Positions 12,662-18,241 of a stretch of DNA of 64,000 nt are shown piece by piece (within the stretch, counting starts at the first letter, position 1; the number at the start of each line of letters is the position of its first letter). The notes below the pieces were generated by a model. It worked only from the letters and a program-made list of their open reading frames with translations, was not told the DNA's origin and did not search any database. The stretch lies in NCBI GenBank assembly GCA_001002765.1, contig LCMS01000002.1:1454-65453 (forward strand). The letters run 5' to 3'. This DNA comes from Candidatus Uhrbacteria bacterium GW2011_GWE2_46_68 (lineage in GTDB: Bacteria > Patescibacteriota > Patescibacteriia > UBA9934 > GWF2-40-263). Both the position numbers and the translations under genes were made by a program.

Positions 12662-13240
12662 TTACTCCAGGGTTTTTGTTTGTGCAGAACTTGTCATCTC
12701 TTGTCGCTTGCGTTCCCGATTATCTTCAACCACATGGATAATCTGTTCTTTTATTTTTTCAGGCTTCGATATTTCTTTAAAATGAAATTGTTTCATCTGC
12801 CCCGCCGTTTGAATCACGACATCTCCATAATCGAGCATGGTACGAATGACTCCTTGCACATCAGAGGTGACGTCTTGCACTGCATCTAAGGGAAGCTCGG
12901 AGGCAATACGACTGAACAATCCTTTTTGTTCAATATTGATGACGCGTTCATTGGTGACGATCCAAGTATCCAGATAAAAATCCGTAAACTCCATGAAGGC
13001 AAAAAGCCAAACCGCAAGAAAATAAATGATCGCGACGGTGGCAAAAAGCGGCCCCAAGAGCGGATGCTCGTACCAGGTTTGAATTTCATCCGCATACACA
13101 GTGAGACCGGCAGCCAGAGGAGCGCCGATAAAAAAGATCGCGGCAGTAACAAGTCTTGTATTGGTGATCCAGTGACGGCGGAGAAATAAAATCACTTTTT
13201 CATCCTTGCGTTGATTGGGAAGATGATCAAGGCGCATCAT
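12662..13240 (-). CDS. Bacterial PH (bPH_2, YdbS/YdbT-like) domain membrane protein
   Basis: Two TM helices followed by a PH-like domain (YLDTWIVTNERVINIEQKGLFSR...DYGDVVIQTAG). Confidence 0.6.
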   Translation of the reverse strand: MMRLDHLPNQRKDEKVILFLRRHWITNTRLVTAAIFFIGAPLAAGLTVYADEIQTWYEHPLLGPLFATVAIIYFLAVWLFAFMEFTDFYLDTWIVTNERVINIEQKGLFSRIASELPLDAVQDVTSDVQGVIRTMLDYGDVVIQTAGQMKQFHFKEISKPEKIKEQIIHVVEDNRERKRQEMTSSAQTKTLE

Positions 13241-13542
13241 ATGGGAAGGATGGTTTGTGAATAATCTTCAAAAAAGTTTTTCAAAGAGATCGAAGCGGTC
13301 CAATCTATATCCAGTGTAATGAAGATGGCCAGACTCACAAGAAAAACGGTTCCAAGAATATAGATTGTGGAGATGATATACAGACCGAAGTTGTAGACGC
13401 CGAATCGAAACAGATGGTAGAGGTTGAACAGACTGTAGAGAACAAAAACGAAAAAAAAGATTCCCAGAGGAAGGAGTAGCCAAGAGACGGAAAGTGAAAG
13501 AGAGGAGAAAATTTCTAGGTCCATAGGGAGATAGTGTAACAC
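13237..13542 (-). CDS. Small membrane protein (2-3 TM), probable partner of the bPH protein
   Basis: ATGA start/stop overlap with the downstream bPH gene. Hydrophobic. Confidence 0.4.
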   Translation of the reverse strand: MLHYLPMDLEIFSSLSLSVSWLLLPLGIFFFVFVLYSLFNLYHLFRFGVYNFGLYIISTIYILGTVFLVSLAIFITLDIDWTASISLKNFFEDYSQTILPI

Positions 13543-13545
13543 GCA

Positions 13546-14583
13546 TTAGAGGAGGGTAGCAGGAGGTGTGAGGCCAAGATGTTCATAGGCGCGACGAGTG
13601 GCGAGGCGTCCGCGCGGGGTACGTTCCAAAAGTCCCAACTGTAACAAGAATGGTTCGTACACTTCCTCGATCGTATCAATTTCTTCTTGTGTGGAGGCGG
13701 CAAGAGTGTTGAGTCCGACAGGACCCCCGTGAAATTTTTCAATAATGGCGTGAAGGAGGCGTCGATCCACGTCATCCAGACCAAGAGGGTCAACATGAAG
13801 GATGTCAAAAGCTTCTTGTGCAACCGAGGTGGTAATGGTTCCTTGTGCGCGCACTTGTGCAAAATCGCGTACACGGCGCAGGAGGCGGTTGGCAATACGA
13901 GGAGTTTTGCGCGCACGCGAGGCCAAAAGTTCACAGGCGTCTTTTGCAATTTCCACTTGAAGCTTGGAAGCATTACGACGAATGATATGGGCGATATCTT
14001 CATCCGCATAAAAATCTAGGTGATGGGTGACGCCGAAACGATCTCGCAGTGGAGAGGACAGAAGAGAAAGGCGGGTGGTGGCACCGATCACAGTGAAGCG
14101 TTCCAAATTGAGCCGGAGGGTACGCGCGGTTGGTCCCTTTCCAACGATCAGATCAAGCGCATAATCTTCCATGGCAGGATAGAGGACTTCCTCAATTGTT
14201 TTATTGAGTCGATGAATTTCATCAATAAAGAGCACATCTCCTTTTTGCAGATTAGAAAGGATGGCGGCGAGATCACCGACGCGTTCGAGAGCCGGACCGC
14301 TTGTGATTTTGATTTGCGCCCCACATTCATTGGCAATGATATGGGCAAGGGTGGTTTTACCAAGGCCCGGATTTCCGTAGAGCAGTACGTGTTCAATGGG
14401 TTCCTCTCGTTTTTTTGCCGCTTCCAAAAAAATCGAAAGGTGTTCTTTGATCACAGGTTGTCCTACAAAATCTCCCAAGGTTTTTGGGCGTAAACTGATT
14501 TCTTCTTCTCGTTCGGTTTCCGAAGCCGTTGGAGTTGTGAGCAGATTTGTTGGGGGTATGTGTTGATTGTCTCTTTCAATCAT
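13546..14583 (-). CDS. ruvB: Holliday junction branch migration ATPase RuvB
   Basis: Has Walker [18 protein letters not shown], and the sensor and winged-helix regions. Start at MIERDNQ with an AGGTGAT RBS. Confidence 0.95.
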
Positions 14584-14684
14584 ATCACCTGTATTATGCG
14601 GGAAAGAAAGGGGAGGAGCAAGGTAAACAAGAGGATGAATTTGACGAAGAATCGTCAAGAGAGTACTTTATTCAAGTAAAGTCT

Positions 14685-14978
14685 ATGTCAATCAAAAAAG
14701 ATCCCTGGAATCAGACAGAAGCACAAGCCTTGCTCGATGCTTTTTTCCTTTTGAAAAATCAAGAAGAACTACGTTGTTTTTTACGCGATTTATTAACGGA
14801 GAAAGAAATTGCAGAGTTTAGTTTGCGATGGAAAGTCGCCAAGATGTTGAGCCAGGGAATTCCTTATACGACGATTGTGGAGGAAACGGGTATGAGTTCG
14901 ACAACGATCGCTCGCGTTCAGAAATGGCTCACGGCGGGAAAAGGAGGGTACCGTCTTATTCTTGATCGACAAAAATAG
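14685..14978 (+). CDS. YerC/YecD family TrpR-like DNA-binding protein
   Basis: VAKMLSQGIPYTTIVEETGMSSTTIARV...YRLILDR matches the YerC/YecD (Trp-repressor fold) family. Start at MSIKKDPW. Confidence 0.75.
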   Translation: MSIKKDPWNQTEAQALLDAFFLLKNQEELRCFLRDLLTEKEIAEFSLRWKVAKMLSQGIPYTTIVEETGMSSTTIARVQKWLTAGKGGYRLILDRQK

Positions 14979-14981
14979 TGT

Positions 14982-15539
14982 ATGAAAAGAGGAGCACGCA
15001 AATGGCAGATCGGAGTGATGGGTTCAGCCGCTGATCTCGCTTATGAAAAAAATCTAGAATATTTGGCTGAAGAGGTAGGAAGCGAAATTGCCAAAGTGGG
15101 TGCCGTGTTATTTTTTGGCGCGGAAAAAGATTATGACTCCTTATCTACAGCTGCCTGTCGTGGGGCAAAAAAATTCGGAGGGACAACGATCGGAGTGACG
15201 TACGGAAAAGGACTTGATGTCTATGAACAAACGAGTGCTGACGTTATTATCGCCAGCGGACTTGAGCGCGGAGGAGGACGGGAACTGACTTTGGTATTGA
15301 GTTGTGACGTGATTATTGCTTTAAACGGCGGGTCCGGAACTTTAACCGAAATGGCGATTGCCTATCAGGCAAACATTCCGATCGTTGTGTTAGCAGGAAC
15401 AGGTGGGTGGAGCGATCAATTGGCTGGGCAATATCTTGATGCGCGTAAGCGCGTGAAGGTGGAACAAGCCCAGACTCCAAAAGAAGCCGTTGCACTCGCT
15501 TTGCAACGTATCAAACAATGTTATGACAATGCGTGTTAG
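14982..15539 (+). CDS. LOG/SLOG-superfamily Rossmann protein (TIGR00725-like)
   Basis: The N-terminal IGVMGSA and the LNGGSGTLTEM motif (GGxGTxxE) are characteristic of the LOG/DprA/SLOG fold. Only 4 nt separate it from yerC-like. Confidence 0.55.
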   Translation: MKRGARKWQIGVMGSAADLAYEKNLEYLAEEVGSEIAKVGAVLFFGAEKDYDSLSTAACRGAKKFGGTTIGVTYGKGLDVYEQTSADVIIASGLERGGGRELTLVLSCDVIIALNGGSGTLTEMAIAYQANIPIVVLAGTGGWSDQLAGQYLDARKRVKVEQAQTPKEAVALALQRIKQCYDNAC

Positions 15540-15676
15540 CTTCATTTTTACTTTCCATCATTTTTATACTTTTTCCTTGGGAGAGGAGATGGGCTTTGGT
15601 TTGCAATGACGATTTGTTTAGTAGCCAAGGTCAATCCCTTCTCCGAAGGGATTTTTCTTTTGAGAAGGGTGTGCGT

Positions 15677-16552
15677 ATGCAAACGGAGGTCATCATGATT
15701 CCCTATGTCATTTCCGAAGATGTGGCTCTGCTCCTTGGCGCTTGGGCTCCAACGCGAGGATTCCAAGTTCCTTCCCAGATTTTTTTTGAAGGATGGAGGG
15801 AAGAATTTGTCTTTTTTATGCAAAGGATGTTTCCGGATGTTATTTCCGTCTCTGAGAAAGAGATGACACAAGGACTGTCGAATCTTTTGGAGCATATAGA
15901 TCTCCCCGTTCTTTCTTTGGATGGAGTGTACGTGCAAGCGGATTTGTCTCTTGAGCTGGCAAGACAAATCAATGGGGAGAAAAAAGAGGTGGGGATCGGG
16001 CATCGTCCAGGAACTCCTCTCCTTCTGCATCAAGTGCGGAAGATTCAAGAAAGCGGAGTGCGCGAAGTGGCGCTTGTCGATGATGTGATTTTTTCCGGGG
16101 CGCTTATCGAGCGTGTCCACCATCTGTTAGATCGGTTAGGAATACGTGTCGGCGTTGTTTGCGCAGGAGTGGGAATGGGAGAGGGGGTGAGGAGATTGTT
16201 GTCGCACGGATATGATGTGCGATGCGTACGGAAGTTTGAGAGTGTTATAGATGAAGTTTGTGAGCGAGATTTTGTCCCAGGTGTCCCGCAATCCGGTCGT
16301 GCCATTTTAGGGAATGATCGTGTGGGTGCTCCTTATCTTTTACCTTTTGGGGATCCTATTGGTTGGGCATCCATTCCTCCGGAACACGCAAAATTTTTTT
16401 CCGCCTTTTGTTTTGCTCGCGCCATTGTTCTTTTCGAGGAAATAGAACATCTATCAGGTCAACCTGTGAGATGTTGTGATCTTTCACGTTTTCCCATAGG
16501 TTTGCCGCAAGACAACACGCGTTTTGTGGACTCCTTACGCTTTTTGCGTTAA
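15677..16552 (+). CDS. Phosphoribosyltransferase (type I PRTase fold)-like protein, unknown substrate
   Basis: PRPP-binding-like motif VALVDDVIFSGALIE. Overlaps the stop of the SLOG gene. Start uncertain (15533, 15677 or 15695). An intrinsic terminator lies at 16553-16585. Confidence 0.45.
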   Translation: MQTEVIMIPYVISEDVALLLGAWAPTRGFQVPSQIFFEGWREEFVFFMQRMFPDVISVSEKEMTQGLSNLLEHIDLPVLSLDGVYVQADLSLELARQINGEKKEVGIGHRPGTPLLLHQVRKIQESGVREVALVDDVIFSGALIERVHHLLDRLGIRVGVVCAGVGMGEGVRRLLSHGYDVRCVRKFESVIDEVCERDFVPGVPQSGRAILGNDRVGAPYLLPFGDPIGWASIPPEHAKFFSAFCFARAIVLFEEIEHLSGQPVRCCDLSRFPIGLPQDNTRFVDSLRFLR

Positions 16553-16576
16553 ACCCGAGGAAACACCTTGGGTTTT

Positions 16577-16605
16577 TTTGACAAGAAAGAATTATGGGTA
16601 TATAT
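16577..16605 (+). promoter_or_regulatory. Sigma70-like promoter (TTGACA-N17-TATATT) upstream of the DUF5320/DUF134 pair
   Basis: Hexamers read directly, with a 17-nt spacer. Confidence 0.5.
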
Positions 16606-16632
16606 TCAAAATATAATTTCTCATATATTTCT

Positions 16633-16833
16633 ATGCCACATCAAGACGGAACAGGACCTTGTGGAAAAGGTCCAAAAACAGGGAGAGGATTAGGAGCCTG
16701 TATAGGCGTGCCTAATGATCAACTTTTTGATCAGCCTTTTGAGAACTGCGGGAAGAGGAAGGTTGGATTTTTTGGCCGCACATTTCGAAGATCGCCACGG
16801 GGAAGATGTGGTTTTGGAAGAAATGAAAGGTAA
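16633..16833 (+). CDS. DUF5320 family small protein
   Basis: The N-terminus (MPHQDGTGPCGKGPKTGRGLGAC) is typical of DUF5320 proteins. Confidence 0.55.
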   Translation: MPHQDGTGPCGKGPKTGRGLGACIGVPNDQLFDQPFENCGKRKVGFFGRTFRRSPRGRCGFGRNER

Positions 16834-16841
16834 AAAATAGT

Positions 16842-17123
16842 GTGTCACGTCCAAGACAAGGGAGACGAGTACGGTTTTATCCGGAAATCGTGTATTTTAA
16901 ACCCCAAGGAATCCCCATGAGGGATCTTGAGGTTGTTACATTGGAGTCTGAAGAACTTGAAGCCTATCGTTTACGCCATGTCCAAGGCATGGAACAAATA
17001 GAAGCGGCAAAAAGTATGCAAACTTCGCAAAGCACATATCAGAGAATTTTATACCGTGCTTATGAAAAAATAGCAGATGCGTTGGTGCATGGAAAAGCCA
17101 TCAAACTTATTCGCGACATATGA
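16842..17123 (+). CDS. DUF134 (UPF0251) predicted DNA-binding protein
   Basis: GRRVRFYPEIVYFKPQGIP...LEVVTLESEELEAYRL...EAAKSM.TSQSTYQRIL matches DUF134. GTG start. Confidence 0.65.
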   Translation: MSRPRQGRRVRFYPEIVYFKPQGIPMRDLEVVTLESEELEAYRLRHVQGMEQIEAAKSMQTSQSTYQRILYRAYEKIADALVHGKAIKLIRDI

Positions 17124-18241
17124 TGAAACTCTTTGTTATATTTTCTTTTTTTCTGTTTTTTCCTTTTTTAGCATTCGGTCAGACTTTTTCCGAAGAACAA
17201 GCTCAAACCAGTGAGATGTTTGAGGCGCGCGTGTCGTGTATTTTAGAAGAACGGGAAATACAAAGAGAAGATGGAACTTTTACAATACAACAGAACATTC
17301 TTTTGGAAGGATTGAGAGGGGAGTGGAAAGACGAGGAAGTTTATTATGAAGGCATTTCCGTTATTGATGTTTTGGATGCGAATGTTTACGAAGAAGGAGA
17401 TAAAGTATTGGTATTGAAAAGTGAAAATTCTGAAGGAGAAACCTATTTTTATCTCATGGATTTTGTGAGGAGGGACGCCTTGTATCTTTTATTGTTTCTT
17501 TTTTGTCTCGTAACTATTCTTGTTGGCAAAGTAAAAGGTTTCAAAGCTTTGCTCGGTCTTGCCGTGAGTTTTTTGATCATCATTAAAATGATTTTGCCAG
17601 GTATTTTGGGAGGAGGAAATCCTTTGGTATGGGGGGCGGCGGGATCTTTTTTTATTTTACTTTTTCTCATCTATCTTACGGAAGGTTGGAATCAAAAATC
17701 TCATATTGCCATGGTAAGCATCTTTTTTTCCCTGCTGGCTGTCATCATACTGTCATGGCTTTTTTCTGGATGGGCGCATTTGTCCGGATATGCACAAGAG
17801 GAAACTATGTTTCTTATCGGAATAGGGAATAACATTATTGATTTTAAGGGATTGGTTTTGGCGGGGATGCTCATTGGTGCCATTGGTGTTTTAGATGATG
17901 TGGTGGTGAATCAAATAGAGACCGTGCAACAGATGAAAAAAGCGAATCCATTCCTCTCACCTCAAAAAATATATGAGATGGCCCATCAAGTGGGAAAGAC
18001 ACATATGGGAGCTATTGTGAACACACTTTTTTTGACCTATGCCGGTGCCTCTTTACCCCTTCTTTTATTGTTTGTTGTGAGGGAAGAGCCATTCCTCACC
18101 TTTTCACAAATTTTGAATCATGAGATGATCGCCACAGAATTGATTCGCACCTTGGTGGGAAGTATCGGGGTGGCACTTTCCATGCCTCTGTCCACCTTTT
18201 TGGCATCTCGTATCTTAAAAAAAGAACCTAAGGTAGAATAA
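17120..18241 (+). CDS. Polytopic membrane protein, possibly YibE/F family
   Basis: Signal peptide, then a 110-aa soluble domain and 6-7 TM helices. Family call is by topology and composition only. Confidence 0.35.
   Translation: MMKLFVIFSFFLFFPFLAFGQTFSEEQAQTSEMFEARVSCILEEREIQREDGTFTIQQNILLEGLRGEWKDEEVYYEGISVIDVLDANVYEEGDKVLVLKSENSEGETYFYLMDFVRRDALYLLLFLFCLVTILVGKVKGFKALLGLAVSFLIIIKMILPGILGGGNPLVWGAAGSFFILLFLIYLTEGWNQKSHIAMVSIFFSLLAVIILSWLFSGWAHLSGYAQEETMFLIGIGNNIIDFKGLVLAGMLIGAIGVLDDVVVNQIETVQQMKKANPFLSPQKIYEMAHQVGKTHMGAIVNTLFLTYAGASLPLLLLFVVREEPFLTFSQILNHEMIATELIRTLVGSIGVALSMPLSTFLASRILKKEPKVE

Follow-up and report, generated by a model that had tools for sequence, protein, structure and literature searches.

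What is the function of an operon that combines a small DNA-binding protein with a SLOG-type Rossmann protein and a protein resembling phosphoribosyltransferases (PRTases)? This question is raised by a locus of Candidatus Uhrbacteria bacterium GW2011_GWE2_46_68, situated in a stretch of 64,000 nt of contig LCMS01000002.1 that was analysed as a whole and is called the window here. A reading of the letters made without database searches (the sequence-only reading) had described three plus-strand genes at this locus, and all three were recovered: the open reading frame (ORF) listing of the window gave three co-directional ORFs on the plus strand. As the best explanation we propose an operon that responds to histidine limitation and is composed of hisR, a SLOG gene, a histidine leader with attenuator and a PRTase-like gene. 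The probability of this reading is put at roughly 0.6. That the operon is regulated by histidine is, in our judgement, very likely.

The first gene (14685-14978, plus strand) encodes a repressor of the TrpR fold of 97 amino acids (aa). Its product scored 73.9 bits against TIGR02531 (YerC/YecD), exceeding the cut-off of 42.2, and 72.6 bits (E = 2.8e-20, cut-off 27) against Trp_repressor PF01371; the matches among the PDB sequences were 3KOR, 3FRW and 3G1C. These scores uphold the earlier assignment of gene 1 to the YerC/YecD family. Describing it as a dedicated small DNA-binding protein, as the same reading did, is too general. The family has been published as HisR, a histidine-responsive TrpR-family repressor with the operator consensus cacTTTAnnnnnnTAAAgtg (PMC9413887), and an operator of this type is present at the start of the operon. 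L-histidine is the co-repressor, L-histidine-dependent DNA binding in vitro being reported for R. gnavus HisR only, and 3G1C is the E. eligens HisR used in that study (PMC9413887).

The predicted operator is the palindrome ACTTTA-TTCAAG-TAAAGT at 14665-14682, which matches the consensus of PMC9413887, ends 2 nt ahead of the gene 1 ATG and overlaps a putative -10 box. In the 64 kb of the window the exact form CTTTAN6TAAAG occurs only once, at 14666-14681. For comparison, one genome per species was scanned, giving a set of 80 loci that encode the gene 3 family. Most of these are labelled CPR (candidate phyla radiation)/Patescibacteria and a minority otherwise, e.g. 'uncultured Gammaproteobacteria' (labels as deposited). 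In 840 kb of related loci 42 exact sites were present, of which 36 were at most 120 nt upstream of hisR or of the SLOG gene. Upstream of hisR the exact sites were often paired, 18 bp apart.

HisR-type palindromes (e.g. TACTTTAGTTAACTAAAGTA) were also noticed directly 3' of the PRTase stop codon, at L012:3579, L022:6907, L023:6881 and L032:6872; these could regulate the next gene, serve as a second operator or be weak terminators. The promoter of the operon is tentative. By eye, a -35 box TTGACG (14641-14646) and a -10 box TACTTT (14664-14669) with a 17-nt spacer were placed at 14641-14669 on the plus strand. The consensus promoter scan did not report this site, as its -10 box matches at 3 of 6 positions only. 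An hisR mRNA that starts here would, tentatively, be near-leaderless.

A second regulatory device was located between genes 2 and 3. Gene 3 had been read from a GTG at 15533, which gives an ORF of 339 aa and an overlapping stop and start with gene 2. Homologues of gene 3 (n = 112) have a length of approximately 285 aa and an N-terminus at a conserved PYV(V/I)S, which maps to the ATG at 15695 of the window, with GGAGG 5 nt upstream; the GTG start is unsupported by homologue starts. The ATG at 15678 is an alternative start. With gene 3 starting at 15695, genes 2 and 3 do not overlap, the claimed overlap being a longest-ORF artefact, and they are separated by a spacer of 155 nt (15540-15694). Because gene 3 was taken from the spurious upstream GTG, the spacer and its histidine leader-peptide attenuator were overlooked by the earlier reader. 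This calls for caution in gene calling, as the regulatory RNA was masked by a longest-ORF call. Between genes 1 and 2 the gap is 3 nt, not 4 nt as had been stated.

Judged from its sequence, the 155-nt spacer is a ribosome-mediated attenuator with the anatomy of the trp or his type. A leader ORF of 28 codons (15523-15609, plus strand) begins with the ATG at 15523, encodes MTMRVSFIFTFHHFYTFSLGEEMGFGLQ and terminates with the TGA at 15607-15609. Relative to gene 2, whose final 17 nt it overlaps, the ORF is read in the +1 frame, and this start within the last codons of the SLOG gene suggests translational coupling. Region 1 has the tandem His codons (CAT CAT, 15556-15561) at its 5' foot, and region 2 is closely followed by the stop codon. 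The attenuator RNA (15556-15665, plus strand) scored 73.3 bits (E = 3e-11) with a covariance model, R1, built on a seed of 17 sequences. Region 1 runs from the His codons, region 2 covers approximately 15576-15604 and region 3 approximately 15621-15648, and the terminator supplies region 4 with its 3' arm. The terminator itself (15633-15662, plus strand), recognised by a terminator scan and by folding, consists of the hairpin AATCCCTTC-TCC-GAAGGGATT (15633-15653) followed by TTTCTTTTG. Fold energies in the window were -31.4 kcal/mol for the 2:3 pairing, -12.5 kcal/mol for 3:4 and -10.4 kcal/mol for 1:2. In most loci the 1:2 hairpin is strong (15 bp); given its weakness in the window, this copy would depend mainly on the ribosome covering region 2.

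Comparison of the loci supported these pairings. The spacer between the SLOG and PRTase genes is 150-200 nt long and strongly conserved in about 20 loci, with a layout of a long hairpin, a variable middle and a hairpin with a U-run. The 3' strand of hairpin 1 is complementary to the 5' strand of the terminator as well, and RNAalifold chose the long-range 2:3 pairing, with compensatory changes. In the trimmed alignment, hairpin 1 and the terminator together had 86.2% of their cells paired and the alternative 2:3 helix had 87.5%, versus 39-59% for slid-control pairings. Double changes were seen in 12 pairs of the former and 7 pairs of the latter, and in other loci the CCC/GGG of the terminator hairpin is changed to CUC/GAG in a compensatory manner. 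In approximately 40 loci model R1 placed the element immediately before the PRTase gene (E 1e-17 to 1e-3). Matches came from more than 20 loci outside the seed alignment, and some precede a GNAT, AstE-like or HAD gene that is situated before the PRTase gene. In addition, two loci that were retrieved independently via the SLOG protein have the same operator and the same leader.

A reading of the hairpins as DNA palindromes was rejected: variant cells mostly keep a standard pair, and plus-strand scores of the covariance model were far above the minus-strand scores. No Rfam family, His_leader included, matched the spacer at E <= 1 in a search of window positions 13000-18000 and six related loci. 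A match to mir-3202 (15572-15652, plus strand; 24.8 bits, gathering score 90) was discarded as a chance match to the 2:3 hairpin of the attenuator. Between the attenuator terminator and the ribosome-binding site of the PRTase gene, a conserved box, AGTTCTTTAACAA, was observed at L003:5955-5975, L013:2805-2830 and in about 12 other loci (columns ~188-203 of alignment A2). This box is not a full HisR palindrome, no partner for base pairing was recognised for it, and it is absent in the window.

The peptides encoded by the leaders point to histidine. Runs of two or three His residues are present in 35 of 42 leaders, and HRH or HNH in some others; His makes up 10.4% of the leader residues versus 1.3% in neighbouring proteins, and both CAT and CAC codons are in use. 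As a control of the frame, we counted ATG-initiated ORFs that reach region 1 at 37 R1 matches, and found 28 in the His frame and 3 in other frames. Five loci (L024:18-167, L017:5741-5890, L011:5692-5850, L031:5070-5213 and L068:5747-5908) have no separate leader ORF. There it is the C-terminal part of the preceding gene (SLOG, HisR or PfkB) that provides the His codons and reaches into region 1, and translation of the upstream protein itself would do the sensing.

On these predictions, which are well supported, the operon is under two independent histidine sensors, HisR and the attenuator. With free histidine plentiful, HisR and its co-repressor L-histidine would occupy the palindrome at 14665-14682 and turn off the entire operon. 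With His-tRNA scarce, the ribosome would stall at 15556-15561 and region 2 would pair with region 3, so that the terminator at 15633-15662 is not formed and the PRTase gene is transcribed. With His-tRNA plentiful, the ribosome would reach the stop codon at the end of region 2, the 2:3 pairing would be blocked and the 3:4 terminator would form. From the combination of the two devices it follows that free histidine would govern the SLOG and PRTase genes alike, and that the latter would depend on tRNA charging as well.

Gene 2 (14982-15539, plus strand) encodes a Rossmann protein of 185 aa of SLOG cluster 4 (TIGR00725-like), a putative ribotide phosphoribohydrolase. It matched SLOG cluster 4 (PF18306) with 105.4 bits (E = 2.7e-30, cut-off 26.3) and has the sequence NGGSGTLTE, which corresponds to the GGxGTxxE motif. 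The earlier SLOG call is therefore correct. The scores against the more specific families TIGR00725 (86 bits, cut-off 106.9) and LOG PF03641 (17.5, cut-off 27) were under the curated cut-offs, as was that against TIGR00730 (29.6, cut-off 96). With respect to the LOG catalytic residues the result was mixed: the Arg and Glu align with R100 and E123 of gene 2 and are conserved, while the GGGxxG loop is absent. The nearest PDB sequences were 1RCU (TM1055) and the Chlamydomonas molybdenum cofactor (Moco) carrier protein 2IZ5. Across CPR loci the SLOG protein is 60-73% identical, versus 31-53% for the PRTase. A 'second SLOG paralogue' that emerged from ORF clustering proved to be an AstE/AspA-like deacylase, which had been joined to the cluster via a genuine SLOG-AstE fusion.

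Gene 3 (15695-16552, plus strand) encodes a divergent protein of 285 aa with the core fold of the type I PRTases. Its score against Pribosyltran PF00156 (12.3 bits) was under the cut-off of 26.3. The sequence-only reading had pointed to a motif for binding of phosphoribosyl pyrophosphate (PRPP), VALVDDVIFSGAL, and in this motif the DD pair is invariant and the S-G conserved, while the usual terminal Thr is replaced. The earlier family call holds for gene 3 at the level of a divergent PRTase fold. The protein has an invariant C-terminal motif specific for its family, DEVCERDFxPGVPxSGR...PYxxPFGxPxxWAS, with many charged residues. The family has a size of approximately 760 clusters at 50% identity (E < 1e-10) and is without a Pfam or NCBIfam model of its own. 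Weak N-terminal matches to PF24390 ('PRTase-CE') in 8 of 37 members only were set aside as uninformative; this family is probably named after PRTases of conjugative elements (PMC5512222). Larger clusters also contain a second, longer paralogue of the PRTase family, of about 340-360 aa and approximately 23% identical to the window protein (L035:10134-11216, L036:8971-10047, L038:273-2542, L044:7004-8050, L060:2125-3171 and L086:11050-12084). This paralogue gave no Pfam or NCBIfam match above threshold.

The three genes are co-conserved. Of the 80 loci, 61 have a SLOG gene no further than 6 kb from the PRTase gene and 35 have HisR/YerC; among the 54 loci flanked by at least 3 kb on both sides, 46 have such a SLOG gene. 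Gene order and orientation vary among the loci, which argues for a functional association and not for inherited synteny. A bona fide hisS was found in 31 loci (394.9 bits against TIGR00442, cut-off 286.75). The corresponding counts were 19 loci for an AstE/AspA-like deacylase, 16 and 15 for two families of HAD phosphatases, 14 for a HAL-like lyase, 13 for a PfkB kinase and 4 for HisG. Further recurrent partners are APH-like kinases, GNAT, a uridine-phosphorylase-like PNP and IU-nucleoside hydrolase (IU-NH). A tblastn search of the window with HisRS, HAL, HADs, kinases, GNAT, PNP, IU-NH, HisG and AstE found none of these, and the locus in the window is the minimal version of the module. The earlier remark that this is not a standard salvage arrangement proved right.

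A SLOG gene without nucleosidase (PNP or IU-NH) was present in 60 loci, a nucleosidase without SLOG in 9, both in 1 and neither in 10, a near mutual exclusion (Fisher p = 3.5e-6). An HAD phosphatase was also present in 7 of the 10 nucleosidase loci. Where it is absent, SLOG is replaced by HAD and nucleosidase. A phosphatase and a nucleosidase take a ribotide to base and ribose in two steps, where an enzyme of the LOG type needs a single step, so that this exclusivity supports a catalytic, LOG-like role of the SLOG protein. GNAT was accompanied by the AstE/AspA-like deacylase in all 6 of its loci. In addition, natural fusions were found of HAD with PRTase, GNAT with PRTase, PRTase with APH-like kinase, and SLOG with AstE/AspA-like deacylase (L050:3970-5271; P0118, P0119, P0085), which are handles for reconstruction of the pathway. 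In one locus the module lies inside a cluster for branched-chain amino-acid biosynthesis. By eye, ORFs resembling HisB-N/HisD, HisE and HisI adjoin the module in a few loci with HisG (L054:275-2060, minus strand; L064:5690-6022; L061:1012-1356). Together with HisG, these ORFs indicate that at least some carriers may make histidine.

Both the regulation and the presence of hisS, HisG and HAL nearby suggest histidine or a related imidazole as the substrate; our confidence in any single compound is low. In the simplest reading, the PRTase-like enzyme would transfer a 5-phosphoribosyl group from PRPP to a nitrogen atom of a compound related to histidine (histidine or an imidazole precursor), and the LOG-like SLOG protein would hydrolyse the same N-glycosidic bond, releasing the base and ribose 5-phosphate. 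The phosphoribosyl group may thus be a transient handle, paid for with PRPP, by which a histidine source is captured, trapped or converted. In the larger clusters an N-acyl group would likewise be added by GNAT and removed by the AstE/AspA-like deacylase. This add-and-remove phosphoribosylation of a histidine-related substrate is put forward tentatively, with the odds somewhat against it.

Saccharibacteria and other Patescibacteria are generally without de novo synthesis of amino acids (PMC10633639), and for this reason we prefer capture or salvage of a histidine source to a supporting role in the cell's own biosynthesis. The operon might serve CPR bacteria, which depend on hosts, as a hitherto unknown way of acquiring histidine. 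Scarce histidine, urocanate or another imidazole compound would be transiently phosphoribosylated at the expense of PRPP, trapped or converted, and released as free histidine by SLOG or by HAD and nucleosidase, with N-acylation added in larger clusters. Such a route would be switched on only at low histidine and low His-tRNA. In this complete form we consider the scheme doubtful.

Several points weigh against the proposed histidine-limitation operon or the enzymology attached to it. A PRTase followed by a ribotide hydrolase acting on the same base is a futile cycle unless conversion or trapping takes place in between, and the three-gene version encodes no enzyme for this. The substrate and catalysis of both enzymes are inferred from sequence and context. 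The characterised LOG enzymes are less close to gene 2 than are TM1055 and the Moco carrier, which is a binding protein, and gene 2 has GAEKDYDS in the place of the LOG motif GGGxxG. The HAL-like lyase is difficult to place in a histidine-sparing pathway; it is near the HutH of ordinary histidine degradation, with 484 bits, slightly below the cut-off of 524. At the attenuator, the weak 1:2 hairpin of the window departs from the family consensus. Finally, no obvious Shine-Dalgarno sequence is present at the leader ORF, so that its translation would hinge on coupling to translation of SLOG.

The sequence-only reading had likened the operon to nucleotide-centred signalling or conflict modules. 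In such a second-messenger or defence system the PRTase would synthesise a signalling nucleotide, which the SLOG protein would sense or cleave. SLOG domains do sense signalling nucleotides in Thoeris ThsA, histidine-ADP-ribose is a known bacterial immune signal, and the distribution of the module across CPR lineages is patchy. However, none of the three proteins matched any PADLOC model, no relatives were found on viral contigs, and the neighbours are hisS, his genes, HAL and enzymes of salvage type, with no effector, toxin or known defence gene. Moreover, two histidine-specific regulatory devices govern the operon; the HisR family (PMC9413887), the operator and the His attenuator indicate histidine homeostasis and not defence, and a role in defence or conflict is considered very improbable. 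We also give very little weight to a non-enzymatic gene 3 product that, in the manner of PyrR or PurR, would regulate by binding to the leader RNA or by sensing PRPP, the SLOG protein being its ligand-binding partner. PRTase folds have turned into regulators repeatedly (PyrR, PurR, ComFC), the leader hairpins are unusually conserved in sequence and the family profile matched PyrR structures weakly (E 0.005-0.06). These matches span the generic PRPP loop only, however, and fusions to HAD, GNAT and kinase are better suited to an enzyme. A riboswitch or a PyrR-type protein-binding leader was our first idea for the spacer and was dropped in view of the in-frame His-codon ORF. With its conserved start, frame and stop this ORF explains the switch without a protein factor, and because it suffices, a PyrR-like role for gene 3 is unnecessary.

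The link to histidine could also lie in the nucleotide and PRPP economy of histidine biosynthesis, which we hold to be unlikely. When histidine is limiting, the SLOG protein, or HAD with nucleosidase, would degrade nucleotides and so deliver ribose 5-phosphate for PRPP, and the PRTase would salvage adenine or 5-aminoimidazole-4-carboxamide (AICA) or run in reverse to PRPP, feeding HisG or disposing of the AICA ribotide (AICAR). PpnN-type LOG relatives break down nucleotides in this way in E. coli, and the partners in the larger clusters (uridine-phosphorylase-like enzyme, IU-nucleoside hydrolase, PfkB nucleoside/ribokinase-like enzyme, nucleotidase-like HAD) are of ordinary nucleoside-salvage types. 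A few loci are in or next to his genes (HisG in 4 loci; HisD-, HisE- and HisI-like ORFs by eye), and the module within the branched-chain amino-acid cluster would fit as well. On the other hand, most loci, the window included, have no his biosynthesis genes nearby. The module also occurs in Saccharibacteria, including loci labelled as oral metagenome-assembled genomes (L069, L070), a group that is generally without amino-acid synthesis (PMC10633639). Furthermore, the GNAT/AstE pairs and the invariant C-terminal motif of the PRTase would be left unexplained. It is improbable, in our opinion, that the product is a riboside-type metabolite made only under histidine starvation, for instance an exported mimic of histidine or histidyl-adenylate that makes the host release histidine, the clustered HisRS being a housekeeping enzyme or a resistant target. 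An aminoacyl-tRNA synthetase within a variable enzyme cluster does recall self-resistance genes, and the PRTase is fused to HAD phosphatase, GNAT or kinase as in nucleoside natural-product pathways, in which a ribotide is made and then dephosphorylated. The host dependence of CPR bacteria (PMC10633639) would also be in line with this. Against it, the three-gene core is short of enzymes for such a product, the clusters have no conserved exporter and the clustered HisRS looks canonical, as its TIGR00442 score indicates. In addition, the pattern of SLOG or nucleosidase argues that ribose is removed and not kept.

Downstream, the operon is closed by an intrinsic terminator (16553-16585, plus strand) with the hairpin AAACCCGAGG-AAACA-CCTTGGGTTT followed by a T-run and a fold energy of -14.8 kcal/mol, in agreement with the terminator described before. 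A near-consensus promoter, TTGACA-17-TATATT (11 of 12 positions; 16578-16606, plus strand), overlaps this T-run. It is followed by a small Cys/Gly-rich ORF (16594-16833) and an ORF of 93 aa (16842-17123). Upstream, on the opposite strand, a gene at 13546-14658 (minus strand) is RuvB-like by eye, with a Walker A sequence GNPGLGKTT; it converges on nothing and its start faces the hisR promoter region.

No earlier description of the module or of a histidine attenuator in CPR was found in the literature. HisR regulons and leader-peptide attenuators are in themselves known kinds of regulation. New are their presence in CPR, a class of attenuator located within an operon and without an Rfam match, and two orphan enzyme families as targets. 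CPR/Patescibacteria represent a large share of bacterial diversity, are generally without amino-acid biosynthesis and have poorly understood regulation; for this group the locus offers two concrete, if predicted, regulatory devices, a HisR operator and a leader-peptide attenuator. A SLOG cluster 4/TIGR00725-like protein and an unclassified PRTase family are tied to histidine by the locus, and the search for their substrates is narrowed from nucleotides in general to a few histidine-related compounds. Should salvage or capture of histidine indeed be what the enzymes do, an auxotrophic symbiont would have a new route to an amino acid.

The enzymes of the operon can be compared with known ones only in part. 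Of the 285 residues of gene 3, only about 120 superpose on type I PRTases (OPRT, XPRT, APRT, UPRT and the non-enzymatic PyrR). Unlike these, gene 3 has an N-terminal extension, a C-terminal extension of approximately 100 aa that bears the invariant motif, and a score under the Pfam cut-off. Gene 2 shares with the cytokinin riboside 5'-monophosphate phosphoribohydrolases of the LOG type and with PpnN the SLOG Rossmann fold, the (P)GGxGTxxE motif and the aligned catalytic Arg and Glu, from which a role in releasing a base from a ribotide may be deduced. It differs from LOG in its score below the Pfam cut-off, in the altered phosphate loop and in having TM1055 and the Moco carrier protein as closest solved relatives. 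The extended clusters resemble the pairs that add and remove an N-acyl protecting group (ArgA/ArgE, DapD/DapE, AstA/AstE): GNAT is always accompanied by the AstE/AspA-like deacylase, and the former is fused or coupled to the PRTase, the latter to SLOG. The window itself has no GNAT or deacylase gene, and the analogy is one that we infer.

The closest likeness is in the regulation. With the known amino-acid leader attenuators (enterobacterial his and Rfam His_leader, trp, pheST, and the His leaders of Firmicutes, PMC9413887) the CPR element shares a short ORF whose tandem His codons stand at the foot of region 1, 1:2, 2:3 and 3:4 helices that exclude one another, a stop codon where region 2 ends and a terminator with U-run. 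Unlike these, it is intra-operon, matches no Rfam family, has its start codon in the tail of the upstream gene and only 2-3 His codons, which in some loci are supplied by the C-terminus of the upstream gene, and the genes it would control are not biosynthetic his genes. With the HisR regulons of Firmicutes and some other phyla (PMC9413887) the locus has in common a regulator of the same family (TIGR02531; PDB relatives 3G1C, 3KOR and 3FRW), the same 20-bp operator type CTTTA-N6-TAAAG and the position of the site ahead of hisR, which implies autoregulation. The published targets are his biosynthesis genes and the histidine transporters yuiF and hisXYZ, and the text of that study has no mention of Patescibacteria (PMC9413887). 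Here, in contrast, HisR is predicted to act in CPR bacteria on the genes of a SLOG protein and an atypical PRTase, with a response to the effector that is predicted by family.

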